Assembly: GCA_030636025.1 (NCBI GenBank)
Contig: DAOVXQ010000003.1
Span: forward strand, 32,481-96,480
Length of the DNA: 64,000 bases
Reading direction: 5' to 3'
DNA from: an archaeon
Lineage (GTDB): Archaea > Nanobdellota > Nanobdellia > Pacearchaeales > GW2011-AR1
Below, piece after piece: positions 12,222 to 50,200 of the stretch. Under the pieces are notes generated by a model that did not search any database, was not told where the DNA came from, and was given only the letters and a program-made list of their open reading frames with translations. Each line of letters opens with the position of its first letter. Position 1 is the first letter of the stretch. Made by a program: the position numbers and the translations under genes.

Positions 12222-12372
12222 TTTGTGTGTTAAAATGTATATATTCACTTACGACATATGTCACCTACTTGCACACCTTTAAAGTCTTTCGATAGCTTTT
12301 TAAATAGGATCTTTTTCAATCACTATTTAATTGTTTAGTAAGGCTTTAAAGTAATAATTTCCTGAATTTTTT

Positions 12373-13500
12373 ATGCCTCAGAAAAGAATTATACTAAAAC
12401 CAGAAGATAAGGTAGATGAGCCTCCTCCTAATTTAAATAAAGATTGGCATTTCAGAAGAGTTGGAATTCTGAATCCTGCTGTTATTCAAAGAGATAATGA
12501 AATAGATTTGTTATCAAGATTAATTTATAAAGACCAAAGGGGATTAAATTCTTGCATTGTGAGGAATCAAGGAGTCTTAGTAGGAAAACATGTTAGGATT
12601 AAAAGAGATAAAAGAGGGTATCCTCTTGAAGAGTTGGTTTTCCAACCAGAAGGCCCTCATGGAAAAAGAGGTATTGAAGATCCAAGATTAATTAAGTTAA
12701 AATTTGAGGATCCTATTCATGCATTTCTTGTCCATCATAATGGTCATGAATATGGGGATGCCAGAACAGAATATTTAAGAACAAAAGAAGAGAATCCTAC
12801 AGAACTTTCATTATGGGAGAGATTTGGAATTTATTTCCCGAATATTGGATTAGAAGAAGCTATTGAAACAGTTTCTAGTAAAATTCATAAACAAAGATGG
12901 GAAACAGAAGATATTGAAAGATTAGGGAAAAAATCCGAAAATTACCCGCCCTCAAGTCCTTTCTTGAAAACAAAAGATTGTTGTTTATCGCCAAAGAAAA
13001 TAATTAAAGATGACCGGGAATATTATGGGGTTATTGTAAGATTATTGCCAGATATGCAAATTTTATATGTCAAGGATTTTAAAGAACTTGCAAAATATGA
13101 ATTTTGGCAGGGTGTTGTGAAAAATATAGAAGAGCATACTTTGTTGAAAATTGAAAACTGCTGGGAAAATAGCCATATTGGCTTGGCAGGCCCTCCTTTT
13201 GAAATAGATGATGGGGTTTTAATTCCTTATCACGGAGCAGTTATGAAACCCAGAGATTATAAATTTGGATTAGCATTAGCAGACCCTAATGACCCGCAAA
13301 AAATTTTAGCAAGAACAAAAGAACCAGTTTTAGTTACAACAGAACCTTGGGAAACAAATGGAGTTGTCTCAGGAAAAGTCGTATTCCCAACAGGGCATGC
13401 AATTAAAGATGGAATTATACATTGGTTTTATGGTGCTGGAGATAGATATGTTGCGCATACTACAACAACTGAAGAAGAAATATTAGATAATTTGTCTTGA
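12373..13500 (+). CDS. GH130 / DUF377-like glycosidase or glycoside phosphorylase
   Basis: 375 aa. LNPAVI, GIEDPRLIKL and YGAGDRYV are reminiscent of the 5-bladed-propeller GH130 family. Confidence 0.6.
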   Translation: MPQKRIILKPEDKVDEPPPNLNKDWHFRRVGILNPAVIQRDNEIDLLSRLIYKDQRGLNSCIVRNQGVLVGKHVRIKRDKRGYPLEELVFQPEGPHGKRGIEDPRLIKLKFEDPIHAFLVHHNGHEYGDARTEYLRTKEENPTELSLWERFGIYFPNIGLEEAIETVSSKIHKQRWETEDIERLGKKSENYPPSSPFLKTKDCCLSPKKIIKDDREYYGVIVRLLPDMQILYVKDFKELAKYEFWQGVVKNIEEHTLLKIENCWENSHIGLAGPPFEIDDGVLIPYHGAVMKPRDYKFGLALADPNDPQKILARTKEPVLVTTEPWETNGVVSGKVVFPTGHAIKDGIIHWFYGAGDRYVAHTTTTEEEILDNLS

Positions 13501-13597
13501 AAAAAATTAGAAACACAAAGCTTTAAATCTTCAAAAATACATATATTTAGAACTCACAATCATATAAAATAATTAAATTAAATATATGGAGGATAAA

Positions 13598-13783
13598 ATG
13601 AAAGGAAAAGTAAAGTTTTTCAATAGAACTAAGGGATTTGGATTTATAGCTGGAGAAGACAACAAAGAATATTTTGTTCATGAATCTGGAATAAAAGAAG
13701 GACCTATAGACGAAAACGACGAAGTTGAATTTGATGTTGAAGAAGGCGATAAGGGACCAAAAGCAGTTAATGTTAAAAAATAA
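13598..13783 (+). CDS. Cold-shock domain protein
   Basis: MKGKVKFFNRTKGFGFIAGEDNKEYFVHESGI contains the RNP1 (KGFGFI) and RNP2-like (FVH) motifs. Confidence 0.85.
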   Translation: MKGKVKFFNRTKGFGFIAGEDNKEYFVHESGIKEGPIDENDEVEFDVEEGDKGPKAVNVKK

Positions 13784-13851
13784 TATTAATTCTTAATTTT
13801 GTTAGTCAAAATATCAAGATTTTTAATTAATATAATTTATTAGGAGGAAAA

Positions 13852-13941
13852 ATGCCAAGAAATAGAGTAACAAGAAAAGTTAAAGCAAGAAGCAAACAAG
13901 CTAAACGTAGAAAGTCTCGTCAGAAAAAATTAAGGAAATAA
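13852..13941 (+). CDS. 29-aa highly basic peptide (ribosomal-protein-like?)
   Basis: TAGGAGGAAAA precedes an ATG. Product is MPRNRVTRKVKARSKQAKRRKSRQKKLRK. It is below the track length cut-off. Confidence 0.35.
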   Translation: MPRNRVTRKVKARSKQAKRRKSRQKKLRK

Positions 13942-13984
13942 GATTTTCTATCTCATTCAAAATCCATAAAAGATTTTGAAGATA

Positions 13985-14074
13985 ATGGTATTGTCGAGCA
14001 AAAGCAATTTCTTATTTATTTGTTTATTTATTTATTTACTAAAATTGCTTTTGGGAGCAGGATTGCTAATCCCG
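13985..14074 (+). pseudogene. tRNA-Ser fragment (a): D-arm remainder plus hairpin plus anticodon-arm-like sequence
   Basis: ATGGTATTGtCGAGCAAAAGCAATT-[33-nt AT loop]-AATTGCTTTTGGGAGCAGGATTGCTAATCCCG is homologous to fragment (b). It lacks an acceptor 5' strand. Confidence 0.6.
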
Positions 14075-14189
14075 CACTATAAAAATGGCACTATACTAAA
14101 AAATAGGGAAACTCAGATAATTATTTAAACTATAAAATACTTTATTCTATATGATTAAAATTAAATTAAAAGGAGGTTAAAAAATAAAT

Positions 14190-15464
14190 ATGAAAAAATC
14201 AATAAAGGTATTAAGTTTAATTTTGGGAGTAATTTTAATCAGTATGGGATTAGTTGTTGCTTATAATCAAGAGCCTAGTCAAGATATAGAAAATAACAGA
14301 TTTTTAGTAAAGTCAAATAATGGAGTACTGAAAGCTATGTTCAATGTTCACCATAATTTTGATAAAGGATTTACAACTGACTTATCTCTAGGACAATTAA
14401 AAGTTTTAGAAAGACTTGGTATCGAAGTAGAACAAGTTGAAATATATTCTATAACAGCAAGACCAATTTGTGGTGATGGAAGATGTCATCCAGTTAAAGA
14501 AGATGCTATAACATGCCCAGAAGATTGTTCAACTCAACCACCAGTAGAACCGTTTTGTGGAGATGGAATTTGTAATGGCGACGAAACAACAGAAACCTGT
14601 TCAGAAGATTGCTCAGCAGAACCAGAACCAACAGAATGTTTCCCAGATAATCAAATCCCTTGGGGAATAAACAAAGTAAATGGAGGCGTTGGCGGAAATG
14701 GAATTGTAGTGGCTGTATTAGATACAGGAGTTGATCAAGATCATCCAGATTTAGTAGGAAATATAATTGATTGTGTAGCATTCAGATATAGAACTTGTGA
14801 AGATGGAAATGGGCATGGAACTCATGTTGCAGGAACAATCTTAGCTAATGGAAATATAATTGGTGTAGCACCTCAAGCAAAATTAATGGCAATAAAAATC
14901 TTAAAAGATAATGGAAGAGGATATACAGATGATATTGCAGCAGGAATTTATTATGCAACAGATCATGGAGCAAATATAATTTCAATGAGTCTTGGTGGTT
15001 CAGAAAGTAGTCTAATAAATGAAGCAGTTGATTATGCAGTTAGTAATAATGTTTTAGTTATTGCCTCTGCAGGTAATAGCGGACCCTCTGAAGGTAGCAT
15101 ACTTTATCCAGCAGCAAATCCTGAAGTAGTTGCAGTGGCAGCATTTTGGGAATCAGATAATATGGCAGATTTCTCATCAAGAGGAATAAATGATGGAGAT
15201 TGGGTTGTAGAAGAGAGAGAAATTGAATTTACAGCCCCCGGTGTATATGTTGAATCAACATATAAAGATGGATGTTATGCAGTTTATTCAGGAACATCAA
15301 TGGCTGCACCACATATAACAGGCATTGCAGCAAGAGACTGGCAAGAAAGTGCTTCATTAACAAGAACTCATCTACAAAGTTTAGCAGAATCTTATACACT
15401 TAATGTTTATGACTATGGACAAAGTGGAGACGATATAGAAGCTGGACTTGGACTGCCAATTTAA
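14190..15464 (+). CDS. Secreted subtilisin-like serine protease (S8) with Cys-rich N-terminal repeats
   Basis: Signal/TM at the N-terminus. Catalytic triad motifs are DTGVDQDHPDL, HGTHVAGT and GTSMAAPH. There are two CGDGxC...C(P/S)EDC modules. Confidence 0.9.
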   Translation: MKKSIKVLSLILGVILISMGLVVAYNQEPSQDIENNRFLVKSNNGVLKAMFNVHHNFDKGFTTDLSLGQLKVLERLGIEVEQVEIYSITARPICGDGRCHPVKEDAITCPEDCSTQPPVEPFCGDGICNGDETTETCSEDCSAEPEPTECFPDNQIPWGINKVNGGVGGNGIVVAVLDTGVDQDHPDLVGNIIDCVAFRYRTCEDGNGHGTHVAGTILANGNIIGVAPQAKLMAIKILKDNGRGYTDDIAAGIYYATDHGANIISMSLGGSESSLINEAVDYAVSNNVLVIASAGNSGPSEGSILYPAANPEVVAVAAFWESDNMADFSSRGINDGDWVVEEREIEFTAPGVYVESTYKDGCYAVYSGTSMAAPHITGIAARDWQESASLTRTHLQSLAESYTLNVYDYGQSGDDIEAGLGLPI

Positions 15465-15510
15465 TCCAATTTTTTCTTTATTTTTCTCTTTTTTTATCAC
15501 AACACAAACC

Positions 15511-15517
15511 TTTAAAT
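15511..15517 (+). promoter_or_regulatory. TATA-like box upstream of tRNA-Ser fragment (b)
   Basis: TTTAAAT lies within ACACAAACCTTTAAATTCT, centred ~28 nt upstream of GCCGACA. The same 19-mer recurs at 16224-16242. Confidence 0.5.
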
Positions 15518-15541
15518 TCTCAATCTTTCTTTTATTTTTAA

Positions 15542-15682
15542 GCCGACATCGCATACCCCTCTGGGCATACCCAAAGGGCACAAGCAAGAGCCTCTGAGGA
15601 GGTAATGGTATTGCCGAGCAAAAGCAATTTTAGTATATAGATAAAAATAAGGAATTGCTTTTGGGAGCAGGATTGCTAATCC
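15542..15682 (+). pseudogene. tRNA-Ser fragment (b): 5' half with two insertions, ending after the anticodon loop
   Basis: GCCGACATCGCATA + 49-nt insertion (15556-15604) + ATGGTATTGC + hairpin CAAAAGCAATT/AATTGCTTTTG + CAGGA-TTGCTAA-TCCAG. No T arm or 3' acceptor follows. Confidence 0.65.
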
Positions 15683-15745
15683 AGTCAAACAAAATAGGGC
15701 AGTTAGTAAATAAATTCTTATAAATGATAATTATTTAGAAAATTC

Positions 15746-16216
15746 ATGTCGCATAGAAAAATCAATTCAATCATTGAAGGTTGTATGCCAGATACCCCAA
15801 GACAATTGATGTATACTGGAATTGAATTAGATATCCCTAAAAATGCAAATGTCTTATTTTGGAGTCATGAGGTTCATCCCTTGAGATATTTATTGTATGG
15901 AAAAACTAAAAATTTTACAGATCTTGAAATAATTAATAATCCTTTTTTTCAATTTAAATTAGGATTAGATGTTAATAAGTTAATTAAGGGAGGGTTACCT
16001 TTAAGAGATTATGACCCTAAGTTTAGACAGACATTTGATACTCAAAGATCAATTACAACAAGAGATGGAAGAATTTATATTAAAGCACTACATTTCCAAG
16101 ACCGTTGGAGACGTTATCTTGATGCAGTTCAAACAATACTTAAAGAGAGTGGGGAGATTTTTAGAGGAGAGAAAACTGAAAACGATTTTTATAAGAACCC
16201 TAGTGGGGCGTGGTAA
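15746..16216 (+). CDS. Hypothetical protein (cassette ORF)
   Basis: 156-aa ORF lying between tRNA-Ser fragments (b) and (c). Confidence 0.45.
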   Translation: MSHRKINSIIEGCMPDTPRQLMYTGIELDIPKNANVLFWSHEVHPLRYLLYGKTKNFTDLEIINNPFFQFKLGLDVNKLIKGGLPLRDYDPKFRQTFDTQRSITTRDGRIYIKALHFQDRWRRYLDAVQTILKESGEIFRGEKTENDFYKNPSGAW

Positions 16217-16233
16217 TATATTAAACACAAACC

Positions 16234-16240
16234 TTTAAAT
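16234..16240 (+). promoter_or_regulatory. TATA-like box upstream of tRNA-Ser fragment (c)
   Basis: Same ACACAAACCTTTAAATTCT block as at 15501-15520, ~30 nt upstream of GCCGACA at 16267. Confidence 0.5.
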
Positions 16241-16266
16241 TCTTAAAATATTGTATATTTTCATAA

Positions 16267-16339
16267 GCCGACATCGCATACCCCTCTGGGCATACCCAAA
16301 GGGCACAAGCAAGAACCTCTAAGGAGGTAATGGTATTGC
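16267..16339 (+). pseudogene. tRNA-Ser fragment (c): acceptor 5' strand plus 49-nt insertion plus D-arm remainder
   Basis: Identical to (b) over GCCGACATCGCATA[49 nt]ATGGTATTGC except for two G-to-A differences in the insertion. It diverges after the D arm. Confidence 0.65.
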
Positions 16340-16395
16340 GGAAATATTCCATAACAATGGATTTTTAAGGCATATCTGCTTTGCAGATATGAAAA

Positions 16396-16476
16396 GCCGA
16401 CATCGCATAATGGTATTGCACTAGATTGCTAATCTAGACCCTTCGGGGTTCCCAGGTTCGATTCCTGGTGTCGGCG
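16396..16476 (+). tRNA. tRNA-Ser (GCT)
   Basis: Acceptor GCCGACA/TGTCGGC, discriminator G, anticodon arm CTAGA-TTGCTAA-TCTAG, long variable arm ACCCTTCGGGGTTC, T arm CCAGG-TTCGATT-CCTGG. Total 81 nt. Confidence 0.9.
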
Positions 16477-16507
16477 TAATATGGCTGAAAGCCATACACC
16501 AAGAATT

Positions 16508-16565
16508 TAATCCTGTGTAGGGGTGCTGCAGGGGATGTGCCCCTGCTTCGTTCCTGGTGTCGGCG
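16508..16565 (+). pseudogene. tRNA-Ser fragment (e): 3' portion from the anticodon loop to the acceptor end
   Basis: TAATCCTGTGTAGGGGTGCTGCAGGGGATGTGCCCCTGCTTCGTTCCTGGTGTCGGCG. The last 19 nt match the intact tRNA 3' end apart from a 1-nt deletion. The trailer hairpin is paralogous to the trailer of the intact gene. Confidence 0.6.
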
Positions 16566-16706
16566 TTAAAGGGGCTGTAAGCCCCTCAATTCTCCAAGAA
16601 TTCCAACCAGTGTCTGGTTTGATTCACTCCAGACAAAATCATACGTAATAATTTCATAGTAGTTACAAATGATAAAATTTAAATATGTTGTTTTTCTATA
16701 AAAATT

Positions 16707-17255
16707 ATGATAACCCCGATTGAAGTCAAACCAAAAGAATACAAATCTACTTGGGACCCAGAAATTTCCCTGCACACTAAAGAATTAAATTCCGGAGTGG
16801 GTATTGCATTAGTTGAAGACATTCTCTGTGAGAACAAAATACAAAGAAAAAGGTCATTAGCCCATGTTTATTATGACGGAAAAAAAGATTTTGATTTAAA
16901 AACTGCAGACAGGACATTAGAAGGACTCTTTTCTGGATTTCACAACCCATTAATTTATATCGCTTACAATAGATTTAATGTCTCTGAATTAGATCATTTC
17001 GTTAATCCTATGTTTGACCATATTAACAACTGGATTCATAACAATGGCGGAACAATCAAAGATTTTGACGATACCTATGAAGGAAAAAGAAAAATTAGCG
17101 GGCGAATAGTCAATATCTCAATTCAATGGAAAGAACTTACCTTATTAAATAACTCTGTAAGAATAGTATACAGAGATTCAAACAAAGTAATTCTTAATCC
17201 AGAACCCCAAGGATATAAACAAATAAATATCCCAGACAAAATAAATAATCTCTAA
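16707..17255 (+). CDS. Hypothetical protein
   Basis: 182-aa ORF with no recognised motif. Confidence 0.45.
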   Translation: MITPIEVKPKEYKSTWDPEISLHTKELNSGVGIALVEDILCENKIQRKRSLAHVYYDGKKDFDLKTADRTLEGLFSGFHNPLIYIAYNRFNVSELDHFVNPMFDHINNWIHNNGGTIKDFDDTYEGKRKISGRIVNISIQWKELTLLNNSVRIVYRDSNKVILNPEPQGYKQINIPDKINNL

Positions 17256-30060: not shown

Positions 30061-30924
30061 ATGGTGAAAAAAATAAACAATTCTAAAGGCAATAAACTTA
30101 GTGTAGCTCCTAAACAATTATCTCAAAAACAAATAAAAAATTTCCCTTCTTTAAAACTTAAAACAGAAAAAGATATCGCGATGGACTTTGCTGAAAAGGC
30201 CTACAAAAAATTCGACAAATTAATAAAATCAATAATTTTGTTTGGTTCAACAATTAAACAAACAAACACCTCTAACTCAGACATTGATATAATTTTAATT
30301 GTAGACGACGCTAGTATTAATTTTGATGATAAATTAGTTTCATGGTATAGGGAAGAATTAGGAAAATTAATCCAAAAAAATCCTTACAAAAAAGATTTGC
30401 ACATCAACACAATTAAATTAACAACATGGTGGCAGGATTTATCAAGGGGCGACCCAGTTGTAATTAATATGTTAAGATACGGAGAATCAGTAATAGATTT
30501 TGGCGGATTTTTCAATCCATTAAAAATTCTCCTTCAGCAAGGTAAAATCAAACCAACACCAGAATCAATTTACACTGTTTTAAATAGAATCCCTGGACAC
30601 ATTTTAAGAAGCAGATTATCTGAATTAAGTGCAATCGAAGGATGCTATTGGGCATTTGTCGAATCTGCACAGGCATTATTAATGTCTGTCAAAGTTCTCC
30701 CGCCAAGCCCAGAGCACATTTCAATTTTACTAAAAGAACATTTCGTAGATAAAAAATTAATTAAAATGAAATGTGTTACAGATTTCAGAGATTTATATGA
30801 ACTTCATAAAAAAATAACTCATGGAGAAATTAGAAATTTAGACGGAAAAATCATTGATGGCTGGCAGGAAAAATCCGAAGATTTTTTCAAAAGCACTTTG
30901 AAATTAATTGATGAAATTATCTGA
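30061..30924 (+). CDS. Nucleotidyltransferase-domain protein (Pol-beta superfamily), paralogue of the core of 42504..44306
   Basis: ILFGSTIKQTNTSNSDIDIILIVDD (GS...DxD). The shared block GKIKPTPESI...ALLM also appears in the 600-aa protein. Confidence 0.65.
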   Translation: MVKKINNSKGNKLSVAPKQLSQKQIKNFPSLKLKTEKDIAMDFAEKAYKKFDKLIKSIILFGSTIKQTNTSNSDIDIILIVDDASINFDDKLVSWYREELGKLIQKNPYKKDLHINTIKLTTWWQDLSRGDPVVINMLRYGESVIDFGGFFNPLKILLQQGKIKPTPESIYTVLNRIPGHILRSRLSELSAIEGCYWAFVESAQALLMSVKVLPPSPEHISILLKEHFVDKKLIKMKCVTDFRDLYELHKKITHGEIRNLDGKIIDGWQEKSEDFFKSTLKLIDEII

Positions 30925-31000
30925 TTAAATATTTAAATTAATTCTAAAATTTCTTAAACATATTCTAATTTAGATATGATAACCCAACTAATTAAAATTA

Positions 31001-31056
31001 TAAGATATAAATAGGAAAAGTGAATTTGGGTTAGATTTATCTTCCCAAATTTCATT
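31001..31056 (+). repeat. Dispersed intergenic repeat, copy 6 (divergent)
   Basis: TAAGATATAAATAGGAAAAGTGAATTTGGGTTAGATTTATCTTCCCAAATTTCAT. The hairpin arms carry compensatory changes relative to copy 1. Confidence 0.65.
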
Positions 31057-31140
31057 TAAAATAAACTTCTCATCTCCAAAGCTCATCTGTTTTTAAGAGA
31101 TTTAAAAAATAAAATAATCAAAGAAAATTTTTAACTAAAA

Positions 31141-31890
31141 TCACTCGGTTTTTCCTTTTGATTGTTTTTTAGCATCCTCAAGAATTTCATAAAATTTTAC
31201 AATGTCCTTACCCTTTAAATTTTCTGTTAAGTACGGAACTATATTTTTTTGTATTTTTTTCTCATAATTCTCTCGATTAGTCTCAAACATTTTAGAATAT
31301 CTCATTGCAACAAGACCCTTGCCGGTTTTTATTAATTCTTTAATAAAATCTAATGTCTCTTTTTCTTCTGGCTTTGAATACTCACTTTCATAAAGTTTTC
31401 TAACTACTTCACTCATTTCCCCAAAATCCTGGTCATGAAGAACCTTGCTCATTTCTCGAACTTTTTGATGTAATTTAGTTATATCTGTATAAGTTTGCGC
31501 TTTATCCCCCTGATAACTTTCCTTTAATCCCCCAAGTTCTTGCTCTATAACGGTTAATCCAACATCTCTTAAATCTTTTTCATTAATTCCCTTAAGAATC
31601 TCTTCTAAACTTTCAGTAGCTGTTTTATTTGCTTTTCCTTTATTTTCAGTAATTTTAATCCTCAATCCATTAGAAAATTCCTGTTGACTATTTCTAAATA
31701 ACTCTCTTACATTAGTGTCAGGACTAATTTTTTCGATTATTTTATTTAATCCTTCAGAATACTGTTTATCATATCCATTTTTTTGAAGGTCGATAGCCGC
31801 ATCCCTATATGTTTTATATTTTCTAAAAAAGCCATCAAAGTCATTAAAACTTGCCATTTTATTTTTTAATTTTATTAATTTACCTAACAA
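31141..31890 (-). CDS. Hypothetical protein
   Basis: 249-aa ORF. Confidence 0.45.
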   Translation of the reverse strand: MLGKLIKLKNKMASFNDFDGFFRKYKTYRDAAIDLQKNGYDKQYSEGLNKIIEKISPDTNVRELFRNSQQEFSNGLRIKITENKGKANKTATESLEEILKGINEKDLRDVGLTVIEQELGGLKESYQGDKAQTYTDITKLHQKVREMSKVLHDQDFGEMSEVVRKLYESEYSKPEEKETLDFIKELIKTGKGLVAMRYSKMFETNRENYEKKIQKNIVPYLTENLKGKDIVKFYEILEDAKKQSKGKTE

Positions 31891-31981
31891 CTTAAACTAT
31901 ATAAACCTTTCTATTGGTAGAACTATAAAGTAGTAACATAACAGAAACATTTATATATGCAGATTTTTTAGATATTTTACA

Positions 31982-32176
31982 ATGAAACACACAAGATGTA
32001 AAAGATGCAACAGAAGAAAATCAACAGGAATCATAAGGCAAAAAGATGTCTGCAATAGTTGTTACGAAGTAATCAATAAAGACAATTATTTCAGAATCAA
32101 ATCAGGAAAATCAATCCCAAAAGATTTTACAATGATAATTGAGTTAGATAAAAACGGAAAGATTATTAGTTTTTAG
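31982..32176 (+). CDS. Small zinc-ribbon protein
   Basis: CKRCNRRK...CNSCYE (CxxC-x17-CxxC). Confidence 0.4.
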   Translation: MKHTRCKRCNRRKSTGIIRQKDVCNSCYEVINKDNYFRIKSGKSIPKDFTMIIELDKNGKIISF

Positions 32177-32234
32177 GATGTTGAAATGAAAGACAAAACT
32201 TTAGAACAAGAAATAAAAGAACATAAAGAAAAAC

Positions 32235-32627
32235 ATGGCGATAGCGTGGGTTTCTCAATTTAATAATTTTGCATTTAGATTGCCAAATGATGAAAATGAA
32301 GGAGCATATAGAGAAGTAATAAAACAACAAGGAAATCTAGATAAAACCTACAAAGAAACCTTTCCTTTTAATGTATTTGGAGAACCTGATGACTTCAAAG
32401 GGTACAGTCAGTTATATATAAATCAAACTAGAAGAGAATTTTTTGATACAATTGATAGAGTTATTAAAGAAACCGGTATTTCAGTGAGTAGAATTAAGAA
32501 ACTACAAGGTTTAAGAAATAAACCAGGCATAAAAAAAGATTCTTGGCAAGTTTTATATAAATTAGTTTTCCCTGTATATAAAAAATTAAGAGAAATGGGT
32601 TATACTAATGCAGATTTAAGAATATAA
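32235..32627 (+). CDS. Hypothetical protein
   Basis: 130-aa ORF. Confidence 0.4.
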   Translation: MAIAWVSQFNNFAFRLPNDENEGAYREVIKQQGNLDKTYKETFPFNVFGEPDDFKGYSQLYINQTRREFFDTIDRVIKETGISVSRIKKLQGLRNKPGIKKDSWQVLYKLVFPVYKKLREMGYTNADLRI

Positions 32628-32672
32628 AAAAGATTTAAATAAGTTTAATTCTTTGGAGGGGGAGAGGTTAAG

Positions 32673-33119
32673 ATGAAAATTGAGCTTAAAAAATTTGGAT
32701 TTACAGATTATTTTCGAGTCCTTTTAATGACTCTGGACAAAAAATATTCTAAGGAACGTGATGACACTTTTTTTAGTTATTTTTTTAAAGGGTTAAAATC
32801 AGTATTCCCAAATGATTCTTATGAATTTTCAATTTTGGTAAATGAAAAATTTGCAGGAAATATAGGGCTTTTTAATCCTAAAAATGAGGTTTATGAATTA
32901 GGTTATATGGTTTTAAGAGATTATAGGATGAAAGGAATCGCTAGTAATGCCATTAACAAAATTATAAAAAAGGGATTTGAAGAATTAAATATTTCAAAGA
33001 TTTTTGCTATAACTGATTTCGAAAACAAAGAATCTCAGAAAGTTTTGAGAAAAAACAAATTTAAATTAGTGAAAAGAGATAAAACTAAAAAAGAATTAAT
33101 TTGGGAGAGGATAAAATGA
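32673..33119 (+). CDS. GNAT-family N-acetyltransferase
   Basis: 148 aa. ...YRMKGIASNAINKIIKKGF... is an acetyl-CoA-binding motif-A-like sequence (R/Q-x-x-G-x-A). Confidence 0.6.
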   Translation: MKIELKKFGFTDYFRVLLMTLDKKYSKERDDTFFSYFFKGLKSVFPNDSYEFSILVNEKFAGNIGLFNPKNEVYELGYMVLRDYRMKGIASNAINKIIKKGFEELNISKIFAITDFENKESQKVLRKNKFKLVKRDKTKKELIWERIK

Positions 33120-33595
33120 AAATCCGCAAAGCAACTAAAAAAGATATCTCTGAAATAATTAATCTACTAAAAGAATATGAAAAATATATGTATAAAATAG
33201 ATAATTCTAAAAATCCGTGGATAAAAAGAAAAAAGAATATTGATAAAAGAATAGAAAAAGATATTTTACAAGTTATTAAATCTAAAAATGATGAGATTGT
33301 TGTTGTAGAGATTGATAAATCTTTAGTGGGATTTATTTGGTTTTCTAAAGAAAAACCTAATTGGATTCATAAAATTAAATCAACAGGTAAAATAAATTAT
33401 ATGTTTGTATTGCCAAAGTTTAGAGGCAAAGGTATTTCATCAAAATTAAAAAATGAAACATTCAAATGGTTTAAAAAAAATCAAGTAAAATGGATAGGAT
33501 TAAATGTTCATAACAATAATCCAAAATCTCATAAAATATACAAAAAATGGGGCTTTGAAGATTATGAAATTGAAATGTGGAATGAGTTGAAATAA
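33116..33595 (+). CDS. GNAT-family N-acetyltransferase
   Basis: MKIRKATKKDISEII...PKFRGKGISSKLKNE... contains RGKGIS motif A. The ATG was chosen instead of the TTG used in the track. Confidence 0.6.
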   Translation: MKIRKATKKDISEIINLLKEYEKYMYKIDNSKNPWIKRKKNIDKRIEKDILQVIKSKNDEIVVVEIDKSLVGFIWFSKEKPNWIHKIKSTGKINYMFVLPKFRGKGISSKLKNETFKWFKKNQVKWIGLNVHNNNPKSHKIYKKWGFEDYEIEMWNELK

Positions 33596-33713
33596 CATAC
33601 ATTCTCCCATTCAAAAAACGCCTTGTAAAAATCAGGCAAGGATTTAATAAAACTAAGCCTCTTAGAAAATAACCCTCCAAACATTTATAAACTCCGTAAG
33701 ATAATTCTACCAT

Positions 33714-34346
33714 ATGGTAGAAAATATTACCAACTTAGAAATAGAAATAATCCGTTTATATAAAAATAATTATCTTAAAGAGATTTACATAAGAGAGATG
33801 GCTAAATTACTTGAAAAAAGCCATGTTACTCTTCTTCCTCACTTAAAAAATCTTGAAAAAAGAAATATCCTAATTTCAAAAATTTCTGGTAAAAATAAAA
33901 ACTACAAACTAAATATGGGCAATAATCTATCTAAGGAATATATTTCTATGGCAGAAAAACAAGATACTATTTCCATAATAAAAAAAGAGTTTTTTATAAA
34001 AAAAATTTATGATGAAACTCTAAATTTAGATTTAAATGGGATTATGGCACTATTTGGGAGTTATGCATCTGGGACATATAATAAAAAGAGTGACATAGAT
34101 TTATTTTACATAGGTTCAATCACAGAAAATCAAAAAAAATCAATAAAAAACATGGGAAGACTTTACAAAAAACGCATTCATTTAAGTGTTATGAATTTAA
34201 ACCAATTCAAAAAATCTTTAAAAGAAAATATAATAATAACCAAAGAAATAATAAAAAACCACATAATCCTGCAAAATTCAGACACATTCATAAATTCATT
34301 ATGGAAATATTATAATGGAAAAAGAGAATTTAACATGGTGTTTTAA
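33714..34346 (+). CDS. Nucleotidyltransferase (MNT-type antitoxin) with N-terminal wHTH
   Basis: LFGSYASGTYNKKSDIDLFYIG (GSxxxG...DxD). Confidence 0.7.
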   Translation: MVENITNLEIEIIRLYKNNYLKEIYIREMAKLLEKSHVTLLPHLKNLEKRNILISKISGKNKNYKLNMGNNLSKEYISMAEKQDTISIIKKEFFIKKIYDETLNLDLNGIMALFGSYASGTYNKKSDIDLFYIGSITENQKKSIKNMGRLYKKRIHLSVMNLNQFKKSLKENIIITKEIIKNHIILQNSDTFINSLWKYYNGKREFNMVF

Positions 34347-34818
34347 AAAAGAAAGAGGATTAAAAATAATTGAAACTAATGAGAATCTTGTTAAAACATA
34401 TTTAAAAAAGTCAAAGAGTGCATTAAATATGCTTAATTCAGCAATTAGCAAAGATGAACTTGATTGGGTTTTAGACACTTCGTATTATGCAAAATATTTT
34501 TCAGTTTATGCTCTTTTTATGAAGATTGGAATTAAATGTGAAATACACGATTGCACAATATCTGCACTTAAGATATTTGTTGAAGAAGGAATTTGCACTA
34601 AAGAAATATATGAAGAACTTGAAAAATCCAAAGAATTAAGAATAAATGCATTATACTATGAAAAAGAATTTGGGAGGCAAGATATTATAGAAAGAGCAGA
34701 TAAAACTCCTGATTTTTGCTTAAAAATTGAAAAGATTATTAACAATATTACCAACGATGAGATTAATAGCATTAGAAATAAGTTTATTGATTTTGAAAAA
34801 ACACAAACCCCCCACTAA
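34315..34818 (+). CDS. HEPN-domain protein (toxin partner of MNT)
   Basis: It overlaps the MNT gene by 32 nt. The helical protein has LKKSKSALNMLNSAI...YYAKYFSVYALFMKIG, typical of the HEPN N-terminal helices. Confidence 0.6.
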   Translation: MEKENLTWCFKKERGLKIIETNENLVKTYLKKSKSALNMLNSAISKDELDWVLDTSYYAKYFSVYALFMKIGIKCEIHDCTISALKIFVEEGICTKEIYEELEKSKELRINALYYEKEFGRQDIIERADKTPDFCLKIEKIINNITNDEINSIRNKFIDFEKTQTPH

Positions 34819-35702
34819 GCAACCTTCTCTTTTTTCTTAGGATACAAATCAACATAATCTAAATTTTTTCCAATTTTCGGATGTTCTTTTTTAATTAAAT
34901 CAATCGCCTGTGTAATATCCATATCTTTTTGTGCAACTATTGCATGATATTTTTCCCTCGCCATTTTCAAACCAGTAGCTAAAACATCAACATCTGTTTC
35001 TGAAACTTTACAATGCTTTTCTAAATATTCATGAGTTTTTTTAATTCCACTCATCCCCTGACCCCGCATATCAAACTTATCCCTTCTTGCTAATTTTTTT
35101 AACCTCGCTGAATTTTGAGAAAGAAGCTGAAATTCCTTTGGAGACAAGTCACCAATTTTTCTGTTCCCACTAATTACATCGTCCAAAATTGGAGCAAGTG
35201 CTTCATACATTCTTGGCTTCTCGGTTTTCTCTAAATATTTTTTAGCACTTTTCCTATATTTTTCAAATCCCTCAACCTCATAACTATTATCCTCAACAAC
35301 TTTTTTTAAAGGAAAATATTTAATTTCATCTAAGACAGAATTAGGAACATAACTTTTCTTATAATTTTTTAAAATTCTTTCAACTTGTGGGGGTGAGCGT
35401 TTTATAAATGCAGAAGCATCCCCGATTAATGCAACTTTATTTTTATTTGGTTCTATATTACTTATCCTGCTCAAAATATCATCAACATTTATCTCCTCTG
35501 CAATAGCTTCTAATTTTTGTCCAGTAATAATTAAAACAATTCCACCCCCCACCAACCCCAACCCAATAAAAAACCAAACCTTACTAATCGTTGACGAAAT
35601 ATCAATAACTGCCCCAGTCAATCCAGCAAACGGCTGAAAAATAATTATAAAAATTCCCAATAAAATTAAACCAAAACCAAATTTTTTAAACCTGTTTTTC
35701 AT
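34815..35702 (-). CDS. Membrane protein (2 N-terminal TM helices) of unknown function
   Basis: 295-aa ORF. The first 9 codons and the promoter lie inside the 68-bp direct repeat. Confidence 0.55.
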   Translation of the reverse strand: MKNRFKKFGFGLILLGIFIIIFQPFAGLTGAVIDISSTISKVWFFIGLGLVGGGIVLIITGQKLEAIAEEINVDDILSRISNIEPNKNKVALIGDASAFIKRSPPQVERILKNYKKSYVPNSVLDEIKYFPLKKVVEDNSYEVEGFEKYRKSAKKYLEKTEKPRMYEALAPILDDVISGNRKIGDLSPKEFQLLSQNSARLKKLARRDKFDMRGQGMSGIKKTHEYLEKHCKVSETDVDVLATGLKMAREKYHAIVAQKDMDITQAIDLIKKEHPKIGKNLDYVDLYPKKKEKVA

Positions 35703-35742
35703 AAATAAAATTAGATGAATGTTTATTTAAATGTTTAGAAAA
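35675..35742. repeat. 68-bp direct repeat, left copy (island boundary)
   Basis: AACCAAATTTTTTAAACCTGTTTTTCATAAATAAAATTAGATGAATGTTTATTTAAATGTTTAGAAAA is identical by eye to 38262-38329. Confidence 0.9.
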
Positions 35743-36050
35743 TTATTTTAAACAAGTTTAATTCTTTAAAATATAAGAAATTCTATGCCTATGATACAAT
35801 TAAAATTATTTCTCATTTTAAAGGCGCATTTCTTTTCTTTACTAAATCATTTCTCTTACCTATTAAAAGAACAAAAAACATTAGCCCAAAAAATAATTCT
35901 TCTCGATAAAGTCAAGACTATCTGTCCGTAGGACCAAAAGTTCCCCCTTTTATATTTTAGGCTTTTTGAATTTTTCTTTTCAGGTGGGGAGGGGGTGGTG
36001 CCGACGACATTAAATTAGAGAGATTGCCCGACTTTTTTGCTTCTTTCTTT

Positions 36051-36497
36051 TTAAGAAAGAAGATGAGGAGTTCCGTTGTTTGCATAAGAATAAATGAGCC
36101 ACGAATTTCCTAGAGATCCACTTATAAAAACTACGCTTCCACCGCTTAAAGCTATTTCAATTTGTTTTTGTCCATGATTCTTAATGTGGCAACTCATTCC
36201 GTAAAACGGAGAACCGACATCTATATGCCCTTGACCTTGTTCATCCAAATAAATACTTCCATTATTCAGTTGAGCCTGAACAGAACCTACCATAAAATTC
36301 TGAACTAAAGGAGTATTTTTTCCTGCTCCAAGATCTCCACGAGATTTATTAATGCTACCCTCTATTTGATTATGACAATCTCTACAAATATCAGGCCTTA
36401 AATTTGATTGGTCATCATTGCCCATATATTTTTGAGCAACCAAGTGGTGAGTTGTTAACTTCTTTTCTTTTCCACAAAAACTACAAATTACAACCAT
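36051..36497 (-). CDS. HNH-like zinc-finger nuclease domain protein with beta-rich C-terminal domain
   Basis: CSFCGKEKKLTTHHLVAQKYMGNDDQSNLRPDICRDCHNQIE (CxxC...HH...N...CxxCH). Confidence 0.6.
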   Translation of the reverse strand: MVVICSFCGKEKKLTTHHLVAQKYMGNDDQSNLRPDICRDCHNQIEGSINKSRGDLGAGKNTPLVQNFMVGSVQAQLNNGSIYLDEQGQGHIDVGSPFYGMSCHIKNHGQKQIEIALSGGSVVFISGSLGNSWLIYSYANNGTPHLLS

Positions 36498-36503
36498 TTT
36501 ATT

Positions 36504-37481
36504 TTAATCCTCGATCTTTATATCTGCATATGAATTTTTTATAAATTCCAAGTATTTTTTGTGAATCTTTAAATTTCTCTTTTGTATTTCAATAAGTTTT
36601 TGAAGCCTCTTTACAAGGGGGTTTTCCAAAGTGTAATATTCTAGGGGGTTCTTTTTTCCAGGGTAGCGTGAAAAATTAAAGTGAGGTTCTATAAAAAAAT
36701 TCAAAGTTGAACTTACTGCATGAGAGGTTCCACCATAAACCATAGACTCTGCATGTCTAAGTGCGATATGCCTAAGAAATTCTCCAGTTACATTAAGTGC
36801 TTCTTTCTCCTCTTGTTCGCTTATTCCAATTCCCTCCTCTCTTTTTATTTTAGAAAAGGCCTTAATATTGCTAATCCATTCATTTGCAAGTTCTTCTTCT
36901 GTAAGTTTGTCTAACTTTTTAGCTTCAAACGTTTCTGCATTAAGTAATACCTTATCCATCTCCGAGAGGTTCTGGTCTAAAATTTCAAGATTGTCTGAAT
37001 AAATTTTTCCCTTTTCACTAACGCTCTTAATAATTCCTTCTGCCTCAATAACTTTTTTTTGATAGTCTTCTAGGTTTAATTTTTTAATCATAGGTATTTC
37101 TTTTAACTTGGGATTATTCTTTATAGCCTCCTTTAAATTAATAGTTTTTTTTAGGTTGGCTTTAATATCTTCGAGGTGTTTTTTAGAAGGGAAATGCCCA
37201 ACCTTTTCTTTTAATTCCTGTGATTTAAGAATCTCATTTAGCAAAAAGAGTGCTTTTGTGCTTTTCTCCACACTTTGTTGAAATGAAGATACAGAATTTG
37301 GGTATTTCTTATTTTCAAATAAAATTTTAGAGGATTCAAGATCTTCTTCTGCAATTTTTATTAATTCAAAAGCATAATCCACTTCTTTCTGATATTCTAG
37401 CCTTCTCTGGATATCTTCCTTTCCAGGCCCTTCTGGCATTTTCTTTAAAGCTTTTTCAACAGATTCTGGATCTGATATCAT
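36504..37481 (-). CDS. HEPN-domain protein with a ~170-aa coiled-coil insertion
   Basis: The N-terminal helices AEEDLESSKILFENKKYPNSVSSFQQSVEKSTKALFL and the C-terminal NFSRYPGKKNPLEYY match the HEPN (xxRYP) pattern. RHIALRH is also present. Confidence 0.55.
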   Translation of the reverse strand: MISDPESVEKALKKMPEGPGKEDIQRRLEYQKEVDYAFELIKIAEEDLESSKILFENKKYPNSVSSFQQSVEKSTKALFLLNEILKSQELKEKVGHFPSKKHLEDIKANLKKTINLKEAIKNNPKLKEIPMIKKLNLEDYQKKVIEAEGIIKSVSEKGKIYSDNLEILDQNLSEMDKVLLNAETFEAKKLDKLTEEELANEWISNIKAFSKIKREEGIGISEQEEKEALNVTGEFLRHIALRHAESMVYGGTSHAVSSTLNFFIEPHFNFSRYPGKKNPLEYYTLENPLVKRLQKLIEIQKRNLKIHKKYLEFIKNSYADIKIED

Positions 37482-47458: not shown

Positions 47459-48339
47459 GGCTCTGTTGAAAATCTCCTAGCATACAAGATTTAAATTGTG
47501 TGCTATTCCCTTACAAAATATTTCTGTTCTCATTCCTGCAATCTTTTTGGCTTTAATCGTTCCACCATACTTTCTTTTTATCGCAGAAAATCCTGCCTCA
47601 ACATTACTTCTTAAATTATATTCCCTTTGATTCCAGTTTTTCATTTGCTTTTTTCTAAAATGCCCTCGATGAATATTCTTTTTTAATGGGATAAATGTTT
47701 GGATGGATTTCCAATAGCATAATTCATAAAGCCATTCAGCACAGTAACCCTTATCTCCAGAAAAGATTTTAACGTCGCTGATTCTCTTTAAAAGATATTT
47801 TACATCTTGCATATCATGTCTAGGGGTTGTTCTAATTCTCATCACTAAAAACTTTTTAGTTTTCACGTCCAGCAAGGCTGAAAGTTTGGTATAATCTTTT
47901 GGATTTGTTCCATTAATCCTTTTCAAATAATGAAACCCTGGATTTGTTTTGGAAAATCCTGTTCCATCAATAGCGACTTTTCCCGACGACAAACCTGCAG
48001 TTATCTTCAAAAGTTTTTGCCACAAACCAACAGGAATTCTTTTTCTACTTCTACACAATGCAGAATAAGTTGAACATTTTTGTCCAAACATATCTAAAGT
48101 TTTCTCAACTCTCCTTAAACTTAATTGACAAACTTGCATTATCAAAAGTCCAGAAATATGATTTTCAAGTTTATACTTTTTTGGTCCAAATCTATGCAAA
48201 AATTCAGGATATTTAATTTTTTTAAGCAACCGCTTAATTTTTATTTGAAGATTTCTTATATGTTTCATGTTTATCACCTCAGATAAACATAGTTTTCAGG
48301 GTAGATATATTTTACCCTGAAGACTTTTTCAACAGAGCC
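47459..48339 (-). mobile_element. Intact IS4/IS5-type insertion sequence (881 bp)
   Basis: 14-bp perfect terminal inverted repeats, GGCTCTGTTGAAAA (47459-47472) and TTTTCAACAGAGCC (48326-48339). 9-bp target duplication TAAATGGAC (47450-47458 and 48340-48348). Single transposase ORF. Confidence 0.85.
47477..48277 (-). CDS. DDE transposase (IS4/IS5 type)
   Basis: AIDGTGF (D), GDKGY (D) and YNLRSNVEAGFSAIK, which is the Y-x2-R-x3-E-x6-K signature. Confidence 0.85.
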   Translation of the reverse strand: MINMKHIRNLQIKIKRLLKKIKYPEFLHRFGPKKYKLENHISGLLIMQVCQLSLRRVEKTLDMFGQKCSTYSALCRSRKRIPVGLWQKLLKITAGLSSGKVAIDGTGFSKTNPGFHYLKRINGTNPKDYTKLSALLDVKTKKFLVMRIRTTPRHDMQDVKYLLKRISDVKIFSGDKGYCAEWLYELCYWKSIQTFIPLKKNIHRGHFRKKQMKNWNQREYNLRSNVEAGFSAIKRKYGGTIKAKKIAGMRTEIFCKGIAHNLNLVC

Positions 48340-48343
48340 TAAA

Positions 48344-48422
48344 TGGACCTACCAGAGATCGCGGCCTCTTTAATAAAAAGAGGTCATCCCCACAGGGAAA
48401 CTGCTGAATTCTCGGTGTAAAC
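48344..48422 (-). pseudogene. tRNA-Val 3'-half copy V3 (with 44-nt replacement in the T arm)
   Basis: TGGACCTACCAGAGATCG[CGGCCTCTTTAATAAAAAGAGGTCATCCCCACAGGGAAACTGCTG]AATTCTCGGTGTAAAC. The IS target duplication lies in its 3' end. Confidence 0.65.
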
Positions 48423-48506
48423 TAATGGGTCAAATTACTTCTTTTTTGAAAGAACAATATTTCACTTAACAGAAAGACATATAAATACAAAAAGTATACT
48501 TTTAGT

Positions 48507-48725
48507 ATGCAACTTAGAATTAAAGAAGAAACACACCTTGCAATTACAAAACTTAAAGAACAACTTTTGCTAGATTCTTATGATGATGTTATCTGGCATT
48601 TTATTGAACCTTTTCTTCCTTTGTCTAATTCAAGCGAAAGTTTAAGAAAAGAAGCCTTAGATGAATTTAAAAAAGGAGAAACAATTTCTTTTGAAGAAAT
48701 TTTAGCTGAGCATGAAAAAGATTGA
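48507..48725 (+). CDS. Putative antitoxin (partner of RelE-like toxin)
   Basis: 72-aa ORF overlapping the toxin gene by 14 nt. Confidence 0.45.
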   Translation: MQLRIKEETHLAITKLKEQLLLDSYDDVIWHFIEPFLPLSNSSESLRKEALDEFKKGETISFEEILAEHEKD

Positions 48726-48957
48726 ATTTTCTTCAAAAGCAAAAAAGAAATATTTTAAATTACCCTTTAATATAAGAAATTTTATTAATGCAAGATTAAA
48801 AGATTTACAAAATGAAAAAAGAGTTGATATTAAAAAATTACAGGGCTATAAAAGTTGTTTTAGATTAAGAATTGGCGGATATAGAATTTTATTAGAATTA
48901 CAAAATAATATCTGGATTGTATTTGATATAGATACTAGAAAAAAGGTTTATGGATAA
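48712..48957 (+). CDS. RelE/ParE-family toxin
   Basis: KKLQGYKSCFRLRIGGYRILLELQNNIWIVFDIDTRKKVY. Confidence 0.7.
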   Translation: MKKIEFSSKAKKKYFKLPFNIRNFINARLKDLQNEKRVDIKKLQGYKSCFRLRIGGYRILLELQNNIWIVFDIDTRKKVYG

Positions 48958-49035
48958 TTTATAATATATTCAAAGGTTAATAATTTAATAATTTACTAAT
49001 ATAGTTAGGGGGATGAATTTATATTTAAAAAAACA

Positions 49036-49113
49036 TGGACCTACGCGGGATCGCGGCCTCTTTAATAAAAAGAGGTCATCCCCACAGGGAAACTGCTGAA
49101 TACTCGGTGTAAA
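49036..49113 (-). pseudogene. tRNA-Val 3'-half copy V2 (with 44-nt replacement in the T arm)
   Basis: TGGACCTACGCGGGATCG[same 44 nt as V3]AATACTCGGTGTAAAT, followed by a ~40-nt block shared with V1. Confidence 0.65.
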
Positions 49114-49151
49114 TAATCATATACCTTTAGTAACTATTTTGGTAATAATCA

Positions 49152-50072: not shown

Positions 50073-50104
50073 CTATTAAATGAGCTATTTAGACTTTAAA
50101 AACA

Positions 50105-50145: not shown

Positions 50146-50200
50146 TAATAATACCCTAAAGGTAACTATTTTAGTAATAAACTTTTGTGTTTATTTTAGT

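Follow-up and report, generated by a model that had tools for sequence, protein, structure and literature searches.

Partial tRNA-Ser(GCT) copies around miniature gene cassettes in a low-GC DPANN archaeon: probable scars of serial insertion into the anticodon loop

The 64-kb stretch of archaeal DNA analyzed here (the window) contains an intact tRNA-Ser(GCT) gene embedded in an array of partial tRNA-Ser copies, which bracket small segments carrying a secreted subtilase gene and a 156-aa open reading frame (ORF156). The host, an archaeon with 32% G+C, is a low-GC DPANN archaeon, and loci related to the array come from metagenome-assembled genomes labelled Woesearchaeota, Pacearchaeota and Nanoarchaeota. 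Comparison loci and contigs, from other assemblies and from relatives, carry labels of the form L001. The tRNA pieces, lettered (a) to (e), and the features between them are the following.

13947-14103, + strand: piece (a), a relic 5' half without acceptor strand, homologous to L059, L067 and L062 (insertion remnant, tail); it comprises a D-loop-insertion remnant (13947-13984), ATGGTATTGT (13985-13994), a hairpin at tRNA positions 26/27 (13999-14053), the segments GGAG, CAGGA and TTGCTAA (14054-14069) and a type B tail (14070-14103)
14190-15464, + strand: cargo 1, secreted subtilase (Peptidase_S8, Pfam E = 2e-54)
15501-15520, + strand: promoter-like block of the B recognition element (BRE)/TATA type, ending 21 nt 5' of piece (b)
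15542-15713, + strand: piece (b), a relic 5' half with equivalents in L034, L053/L069, L055, L059 and L061; it comprises tRNA positions 1-14 (15542-15555), a 49-nt two-hairpin D-loop insertion (15556-15604), the 3' part of the D arm (15605-15614), the 26/27 hairpin (15619-15663), GGAG, CAGGA and TTGCTAA (15664-15679) and a type A tail (15680-15713)
15746-16216, + strand: cargo 2, ORF156 (156 aa, no assigned function), preceded by a TATA-like TTATAAAT at 15718-15725
16224-16339, + strand: piece (c) with its promoter block (16224-16243), positions 1-14 (16267-16280), the 49-nt insertion (16281-16329) and the 3' part of the D arm (16330-16339), truncated after position 25
16340-16395, + strand: leader of the intact tRNA-Ser(GCT), with a TATA-like TTTTTAAGG (16362-16370) and a hairpin CATATCTGC...GCAGATATG (16371-16391)
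16396-16476, + strand: piece (d), the intact tRNA-Ser(GCT) (ARAGORN; Rfam tRNA 62.3 bits), presumably the working gene
16477-16507, + strand: trailer of (d), comprising a hairpin GGCTGAAAGCC and then CCAAGAATT at 16499; presumably the last element's right end
16508-16565, + strand: piece (e), a decayed relic 3' half, with TAA, TCCTG (complement of CAGGA in (a) and (b)) and the end TTCG-TTCCTGG TGTCGGC G
16566-16634, + strand: trailer of (e), with a second CCAAGAATT at 16594-16602 and a palindrome GTCTGG..CCAGAC (16612-16634), tentatively a further remnant

Piece (c) ends after the D arm at TTGC/GGAAAT without reaching the anticodon arm, and has analogues in L059 and L038. The leader of the intact gene is also found 5' of a (b)-type piece in L069/L053. 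Piece (e) contains an 11-nt internal duplication (16516-16526 and 16527-16537), and a 7-bp hairpin substitutes for its variable arm and the lost 5' strand of the T stem; its trailer, made up of a hairpin and then CAACCAGTG, has a homologue in the trailer behind the 3' half of L045. The promoter-like block at 15501 recurs at 16224, and variant forms stand at 13512 and before the modules of L034, L045, L057 and L058. ORF156 has zero Pfam matches and five known homologues, several of them near tRNA-Ser or tRNA-Val genes, and its upstream tail is kept in L005. An AlphaFold2 model of ORF156 built from six homologues (mean predicted local distance difference test score 36.9) was unusable.

Within the window, the first 14 nt of tRNA-Ser (GCCGACATCGCATA) occur only at 15542, 16267 and 16396, the core of the D-loop insertion only at 15559 and 16284, the hairpin with its anticodon segment (AATTGCTTTTGGGAGCAGGATTGCTAATCC) only at 14043 and 15653, and the last 15 nt of the tRNA (TTCCTGGTGTCGGCG) only at 16462 and 16551; window shuffles gave a chance expectation of 0.00-0.01 matches per repeat. 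The two 49-nt insertions (15556-15604 and 16281-16329) differ by two substitutions, and the same hairpin arms, CAAAAGCAATT/AATTGCTTTTG, enclose unrelated loops in (a) and (b). Similarity between (a) and (b) runs about 35 nt past TAATCC (repeat family D3, 75% identity across the 61-nt repeat), and this stretch is a conserved "tail" rather than random flank. Paralogy is also seen in the trailers of (d) and (e), both of which consist of a hairpin and, after it, CCAAGAATT. Taken singly, fragments (a), (b), (c) and (e) received no tRNA call from Rfam even at a permissive threshold, at which the locus and eight related loci gave tRNAs and signal recognition particle RNA only.

The arrangement is not an assembly artefact, since an independent ENA assembly of the same sample (L001) agrees with window positions 12309-16496 with one mismatch. 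Contigs end at the locus, L001 stopping at 16496 and L002 and L003 beginning at 16442, with a 55-nt overlap (16442-16496); these breaks suggest strain variants coexisting at the 3' side of the intact tRNA rather than a chimera.

The original prediction, made from the letters of the window, had described the intact gene at 16396-16476, the partial copies with their shared insertion differing by two substitutions, the common 11-bp hairpin arms around unrelated loops, and the paralogous trailers, all of which were borne out. Its piece (a), given as 13985-14074, was correctly placed and begins earlier, because the 38 nt at 13947-13984 belong to it as the 3' part of another type of D-loop insertion, which has homologues in L059 and L067. 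The promoter-like block that it reported before (b) and (c) is present but not specific to the locus: it is the genome's generic strong promoter, found also at 13512, 5' of a cold-shock gene. Two further statements were not supported, namely that all copies diverge at the anticodon stem-loop, since (c) ends at position 25, and that a single insertion-bearing gene was ancestral, since (a) and (b) differ in both D-loop insertion and tail type.

About 30 related archaeal loci were collected by a scan of species-representative genomes with the Ser D arm and its insertion, and by a scan of metagenomes with the hairpin. Hairpin identity in the loci from the metagenome scan is imposed by the search pattern; L034 was found by the other pattern, the D arm. 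Among 13 loci, 17 distinct relic 5' halves, two of which lie in the window, show tRNA-Ser homology that runs exactly to the anticodon loop; this loop reads TTGCTAA in 15, TCGCTAA in L062 and TTGCCAA in L068, and the sequence beyond switches to related non-tRNA tails. Tail type A reads NNTAGG-YWACAAAAGTGTAACAGTTAGTAG, a variant of which is carried by window (b), and tail type B, carried by window (a), contains ..ACTATAAAATGGGCACTATA...

Three metagenome arrays (L057, L058/L060 and L067) consist of two or three modules with varied cargo. L057 contains three consecutive units of promoter, 5' half, tail and cargo, with acceptor stems GCCAACG, GCTGCAG and GCCACCA; the unit farthest upstream is the most decayed and insertion-laden, and that farthest downstream is pristine and matches nucleotides 1-39 of the L005 tRNA perfectly. 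The same module is followed by different cargo in L057 and L067. Across units the cargo includes NYN nucleases, an MNT/HEPN pair, a MazF-like pair, AstE/AspA-like and deoxyribosyltransferase-like proteins, subtilase and ORF156.

The cassettes are also present or absent among relatives. In the sister strain L084 (96% identity), a 29-aa ORF is followed by a promoter with (c)-type units and then the tRNA; both 13947-15500, comprising (a) and the subtilase, and the hairpin-tail-ORF156 unit are missing. The deletion of (a) and the subtilase in L084 shows a 5-nt filler and no repeat. L069, which is syntenic with the window downstream (ORF204 56%, acetyl-CoA synthetase (ACS) 74% and POR 70% identity), has a (b)-type piece, a spacer of about 90 nt and the tRNA only, without a cargo gene, and L034 and L055 are alike.

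The CAGGA stem of (a) and (b) forms 5/5 pairs with TCCTG of (e) and 3/5 with TCTAG of the intact (d), so that a hybrid of an element-borne 5' half and a resident 3' half would be defective. From this pairing, the unrelated acceptor stems of L057 and the nesting at L045, we think that the element probably brings a complete tRNA-Ser. At L045, the intact tRNA has its own promoter and sits within inserted DNA; downstream of it lie a complete 3' half beginning TTGCTAAG and then more 3' fragments, the outermost of which (TGGTGGCG) complement the outer 5' half (GCCACCA), a nesting predicted by serial insertion. The ends of the L045 element are inverted repeats, 14 nt long (GTAACAGTTAGTAG/CTACTAACTGTTAC), together with GATAG/CTATC adjoining the loop, and the junctions reconstruct an attP that is an anticodon-arm mimic, CTATC TTGCTAA GATAG. 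Inverted arms around a 7-8 nt overlap are the geometry used by tyrosine recombinases. A reading of the 8-nt repeat and inverted ends of L045 as a single transposon insertion was weakened: the junctions come from different nested events, because the acceptor strands mismatch and ARAGORN rejects the join.

A second array lies at a tRNA-Val(TAC) gene elsewhere in the window.

47477-51040, - strand: tRNA-Val(TAC) cassette array of single-gene cassettes and 3' halves, comprising the features below
51040-50970, - strand: tRNA-Val(TAC)
50938-50201, - strand: GT2 glycosyltransferase gene
50145-50105, - strand: tRNA-Val 3' half #1, 41 nt, one mismatch
50072-49152, - strand: PL14 lyase gene
49113-49036, - strand: tRNA-Val 3' half #2
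48421-48344, - strand: tRNA-Val 3' half #3
48277-47477, - strand: DDE transposase

All three 3' halves begin at the anticodon loop TTTACAC, and in the older ones, #2 and #3, the T arm is substituted by about 42 nt (CAGCAGTTTCCCTGTGGGGATGACC...). A conserved AAAATAGTTAC motif, which resembles the right end of L045, stands 5' of #1 and #2. Compared with the Ser array the polarity is reversed, as would be expected if the Val cassettes brought in a 3' half and not a complete gene. It seems that tRNA-Val has undergone the same process as tRNA-Ser, and with this second array the process would be general in this genome. A kinship between the extra hairpin of (e) and the replacement segment of the tRNA-Val relics was dropped, the match being 7 nt only. 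In relatives, tRNA-Val genes have partial 5' copies upstream (L004 5803-6468; L007 about 880-1057): in L004 a copy of the initial 14 nt stands 75 nt before the gene, and L007 has an upstream 5' half ending TTTACAC.

The D-loop insertion consists of two hairpins and falls into three sequence types across loci; that of (a) differs in type from that of (b) and (c), and its complete form is seen in L059 and L067. The original prediction had treated the insertion as an ancestral trait of a working gene, which the scans do not support: an uninterrupted tRNA-Ser with the D-loop insertion was not returned by the genome scan, nor one with the 26/27 hairpin by the metagenome scan, and the tRNA-linked copies all lie in relic pieces. 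Neither the insertion nor the hairpin is likely to have a role in tRNA function. Between the window and L034 no difference is seen in the hairpin stem or in the GGGAGCAGGATTGCTAA after it, although the functional tRNAs of the two differ at about 10 positions. The hairpin module (CGAGCAAAAGCAATTT..AAATTGCTTTTGGGAG) also occurs without adjacent tRNA-derived sequence in L056 (143-190), L063 (3622-3669) and L064 (1384-1433), and may be a small mobile (dispersed) palindrome, or a recombination or expression signal.

Units of the (c) type, made up of positions 1-14, D-loop insertion, D arm and spacer, occur in tandem in L084 (1099-1575, 129-nt period, one unit with a 16-nt deletion inside the insertion) and in L038 (50-233, 116-nt period). 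A related leader architecture is found in at least 12 species-level genomes, at tRNA-Ser genes of several anticodons (L010, L015, L018, L019, L021, L023, L028, L031, L033, L044, L050, L051), and consists of a promoter, a perfect copy of tRNA-Ser nucleotides 1-14, a covarying hairpin, ..ATGAATGC.., a spacer and the complete tRNA-Ser. In these leaders the promoter lies 5' of the 14-nt copy, the 3' part of the D arm is degenerate and the spacer measures 10-55 nt; the final 17-19 nt are often repeated, in visible decay, at a distance of 30-270 nt beyond the gene. Relaxed scans of the leaders gave no consistent bulge-helix-bulge (BHB) motif. The (c)-type leaders are probably truncated relics that recombination among repeats has remodelled; the regularity of their boundaries (14/15, 25/26, T loop) hints that additional site-specific events may have taken place. 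A casposon-like 14-nt target duplication was dropped as the source of the first 14 nt, since similarity continues, degenerate, into the D arm, and by eye neither the leader hairpins nor the 26/27 hairpin fitted the consensus of C/D-box, H/ACA or k-turn RNAs. In L050 (about 2535-2440, - strand), a tRNA-Ser carries the anticodon loop twice (CTAGAAA and CTTGAAA, that is AGA and TGA) around a two-hairpin insertion of about 42 nt, which looks like a cassette-free footprint in the anticodon loop.

The broken copies are most probably, with a probability of roughly 0.7, the scars of small cassettes, each carrying a fresh tRNA-Ser, that were inserted serially into the anticodon loop of the resident gene. 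Such a cassette would have the conserved tail as its left end, carry one or two genes as cargo and hold a complete tRNA-Ser(GCT) with its own promoter. Its partner in site-specific recombination would be the TTGCTAA anticodon loop (7 nt) of the resident gene, for which the strands of the anticodon stem would provide natural inverted repeats. A loop flanked by the inverted repeats of a stem is a classic core site of a tyrosine recombinase. Integration would split the resident gene, and the incoming copy would restore its function and serve as the next target. Promoter-bearing 5' halves would thus stack upstream, (a) and then (b), each with its tail and cargo (subtilase, ORF156), and 3' halves would stack downstream, here (e), and then decay. 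As none of the cassettes encodes a recombinase, the enzyme would be supplied in trans. Units would later be deleted or duplicated when the repeated modules recombined, homologously or illegitimately, yielding the truncated (c) and the sister strain without both cassettes. The sequences show the anatomy of the locus, the fixed break point, the conserved tail, the turnover of cargo among relatives, the decay of older pieces and the second array at tRNA-Val; we infer the type of recombinase, a circular intermediate and the direction of gain or loss in each event.

As in att scars, partial-tRNA direct repeats surround non-tRNA DNA with a complete tRNA at one end, for both Ser and Val; the boundary is fixed at the anticodon loop across independent events, with piece (c), at position 25, as the exception; and the flanked DNA is occupied or empty among relatives (L084, L069, L034, L055). 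Serial integration into the anticodon loop, with an uninterrupted tRNA-Ser brought on the element, had been preferred in the original prediction and is backed by this comparative evidence (fixed break point, arrays, absences). The comparison with relatives proposed there, for an unoccupied site, found the cassettes absent from L084 and syntenic L069, and the possibility that relatives share an identical arrangement is contradicted by these presence/absence differences.

Several observations weigh against serial integration. Individual Pfam scans found no integrase among 29 window ORFs, as the original prediction had stated for the window, or among 10 cassette-region ORFs, and none occurred in the recurrent families of 117 neighbouring ORFs; the only recombination enzymes met in Pfam scans were DDE transposases (window 47477-48277; L055). 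Either the enzyme acts in trans or the elements died long ago, and the strain-level differences argue against the second possibility. Three scans of the IMG/VR viral collection for a free attP or circular form, with the tail and Ser-type tRNA halves, gave phage tRNA-Ser genes or chance matches in coding sequence, and no anticodon-arm mimic representing a free attP was found among the comparison loci. Neither piece (c) nor the leaders of first 14 nt, hairpin, spacer and tRNA are accounted for by integration into the anticodon loop, and the identity of the 26/27 hairpin stem in the window and L034 is not predicted by a neutral-scar model. The ORF156 unit is bracketed by direct repeats of about 100 nt (promoter, positions 1-14, insertion, D arm), and its gain or loss, including its absence in L084, may have occurred by plain homologous recombination. 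The only clean right junction is that of L045; the (e) junction in the window is degraded, with ATTTAA for TTGCTAA, and because TAATCCTGTGTAGG resembles the next trailer, part of (e) may instead be a tandem duplication.

A working split or multi-intron tRNA-Ser, the alternative offered in the original prediction, failed its defining tests, is largely refuted and now appears exceedingly improbable. Here (b), or (c) plus (a), and (e) would be separately transcribed, paired through their flanks, cut at BHB motifs and ligated, with the 49-nt insertion and the hairpin as introns. Nanoarchaeum equitans and Caldivirga maquilingensis have split and tri-split tRNA genes with break points at 37/38 and 25/26, and positions 14/15, 26/27 and 37/38, at which the insertions lie here, are typical intron and split positions of archaeal tRNA genes. 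The present pieces resemble such genes in these break points and in having a promoter for each piece, at a normal distance before the 5' pieces; complementary flanks are found in L045 only, as a comparator, where 8 + 14 bp could form between the 5'-half trailer and the 3'-half leader. When the window is compared with L034, a compensatory change is seen in the 3' hairpin of the insertion (CCTC/GAGG and CCTG/CAGG). The lineage moreover splices: L059 contains an intact tRNA-Ser(GCT) (7974-7834, - strand) with an anticodon-loop intron called by ARAGORN as i(38,47) and by our own reading of about 57 nt at 37/38, and this intron has a 4-bp central BHB helix, TTGC/GTAA, checked by hand, so that ordinary BHB splicing exists in the lineage. 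However, a strict BHB scan of 13900-16700, including all trans and permuted pairings, returned AT-rich noise only; relaxed scans at the junctions reached at best 3/4 central pairs, for the hairpin, and zero for the 49-nt insertion; and the L045 flanks pair but give a symmetric loop and no BHB. The ends of the pieces overlap rather than abut (TAATCC in (b)/(e), ATGGTATTG in (c)/(a)). The original prediction had joined (b) to (e), and the CAGGA/TCCTG pairing stands, but (e) has no T arm, its 5' T-stem strand being lost, and ARAGORN rejects all (b)+(e) constructs and the L045 halves; it accepts (b) joined to the 3' part of (d). Unlike a split tRNA, the locus has a decayed 3' partner and, for the same anticodon, a redundant intact gene; the 5' pieces of L069 and L045 have an acceptor strand unmatched by the nearby 3' strand of any complete half, and neither scan gave an uninterrupted tRNA-Ser with either insertion. 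Local segmental duplication with illegitimate or homologous recombination among tRNA-Ser paralogues, trapping neighbouring genes without site-specific integration, is very unlikely. It would suit the tandem (c) units of L084 and L038, the tandem units of trailer and 3' end in L033 and L019, the clustering of tRNA-Ser isoacceptor genes in the lineage, the direct repeats bounding the ORF156 unit and the repeat-free deletion with filler in L084. It leaves unexplained the common loop stop and homologous non-tRNA tails of 17 independent 5' halves, the unrelated cargo at orthologous positions, the differing acceptor stems inside one array, and the mirror-image tRNA-Val array with its loop-exact boundaries.

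An integron-like platform, in which one host-encoded recombinase captures and shuffles single-gene cassettes at tRNA anticodon loops and the modules (promoter, 5' half, 26/27 hairpin, tail) are working recombination sites and/or promoters and leaders of the cargo, is unlikely. Integrons are arrays of cassettes built from IntI, attI and attC, the last with R''/R' core motifs. Shared with them are single-gene cassettes without a recombinase of their own, hairpin repeats between cassettes and toxin-antitoxin cargo: the present cassettes are always tiny (0.3-1.8 kb), with one or two genes and never an integrase, and their cargo (toxin-antitoxin pairs, NYN, HEPN/MNT) is typical of integron and defence-island cassettes. 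Also in its favour are the hairpin stem and GGGAGCAGGATTGCTAA kept identical in the window and L034 although the functional tRNAs differ, the two arrays with related end motifs within one genome, and the hairpin module outside tRNA contexts. In contrast to integrons, the boundaries here are tRNA halves, and new cassettes appear to enter beside the intact tRNA, which each cassette renews. No IntI-like gene or other recombinase was found by Pfam scans, and no attC core motif or consensus was seen in the halves and tails by eye, no attC model having been run. Moreover, the tRNA-derived parts of older modules decay (L057, L067: GTTACATA, TCACATA), and the modules are simply missing from the sister strain. 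ORF156 does not need the tRNA promoter, as it is preceded by a TATA-like box of its own, and the search pattern itself accounts for part of the hairpin conservation in most loci. A bolder version, still doubtful, is that Woesearchaeales-type DPANN archaea have a tRNA-built, integron-like capture system, in which a recombinase acting in trans would place promoter-equipped mini-cassettes into the loops of tRNA-Ser(GCT) and tRNA-Val(TAC); each Ser cassette would renew the site, the retained modules would be functional, and split, insertion-bearing tRNA genes would arise as a by-product and constitute split-tRNA intermediates.

The elements proposed under serial integration can be compared with known systems. 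Archaeal integrase elements and "gene capture" of the SSV and pNOB8 types likewise leave partial-tRNA direct repeats around foreign DNA with one intact tRNA, have a crossover in the anticodon loop between the inverted repeats of the stem, and leave captured genes in place. They differ from the present cassettes, which measure 0.3-1.8 kb, have no integrase, whole or partitioned, that was found, and show structured insertions in the relics; the element here also seems to carry a complete tRNA with promoter rather than an att-length fragment, and promoter-bearing 5' halves persist. Sublocation classes for integration in tRNA genes were reportedly defined by Williams in 2002. Fragments of tRNA genes are common as integration scars in Archaea and Bacteria (PMC9897764). 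In Caldiarchaeum subterraneum, a 5' fragment of tRNA-Thr(GGU) lies upstream of the intact tRNA with an insert of about 1.8 kb between them, in a heterogeneous population (Sugahara et al. 2012, PMC3293823); extra sequence in the tRNA-derived att copy was tied to integration of the element and proposed as a route to disrupted or split tRNA genes (PMC3293823). The order of 5' fragment, insert and intact tRNA is as here, whereas the Caldiarchaeum insert encodes a putative recombinase and has one fragment; the present locus has arrays of several halves, no recombinase found, a replacement tRNA on the element, and two affected tRNAs. The tycheposon islands of Prochlorococcus arise by repeated integration that leaves chains of partial tRNAs (Hackl et al., 10.1101/2020.12.28.424599). 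As here, older elements are pushed outward, only partial tRNAs separate neighbours, the cargo is adaptive or defensive, and strains differ. By contrast, tycheposons are bacterial, mostly 10-20 kb, and have their own tyrosine (rarely serine) recombinase and a replication module, hallmarks not found here; an inward-facing tyrosine recombinase beside a partial tRNA was not met among the cassette-region ORFs or the families of neighbouring ORFs. What distinguishes this locus from those systems is the host lineage, the recombinase-free miniature cassettes, the element-borne complete tRNA with promoter, the lasting 5' halves with structured insertions, and the two arrays of opposite polarity.

If serial integration is the correct reading, small DPANN genomes gain and lose accessory genes (protease, glycosyltransferase, toxin-antitoxin and nuclease genes) through miniature recombinase-free cassettes at anticodon-loop hot spots. 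The graded series across loci, from intact through freshly split and insertion-laden to decayed, bears on the origin of split and intron-rich archaeal tRNA genes, a question that population metagenomes from these lineages would make testable. Where half-tRNA relics carry strong promoters, there is also a risk of miscalls and assembly breaks, and two independent assemblies break within this locus.

Several further features adjoin the array or resemble its contents. A 182-aa ORF with no assigned function (16707-17255, + strand) lies between the relics and the conserved ORF204-ACS-POR block, and is missing at this position in syntenic L069. On the other side, 13852-13941 encodes a very basic 29-aa ORF (MPRNRVTRKVKARSKQAKRRKSRQKKLRK) with a Shine-Dalgarno-like GGAGG, whose 3' end abuts or overlaps the left end of (a); a 29-aa ORF was also called in L004 near its ORF156 homologue, which begins 50 nt past the tRNA-Val. 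L005 and L006, near-identical contigs from different samples, have in common a block of ORF298 and the ORF156 homologue and diverge directly upstream of it, with a tRNA-Ser(GCT) in L005 (446-500) and unrelated sequence in L006 (about 190-215); this divergence is a rearrangement break point beside the tRNA. An 18-mer resembling tRNA-Gly at 31293 lies within coding sequence and is a chance match. Window positions 30061-37481 contain genes of toxin-antitoxin or defence type, namely two nucleotidyltransferase genes (MNT-like), one HEPN-domain gene and a weak PIN_6 match (E = 5e-4, under the Pfam cutoff), which are of the same kind as the cargo in the tRNA-Ser cassettes of relatives.

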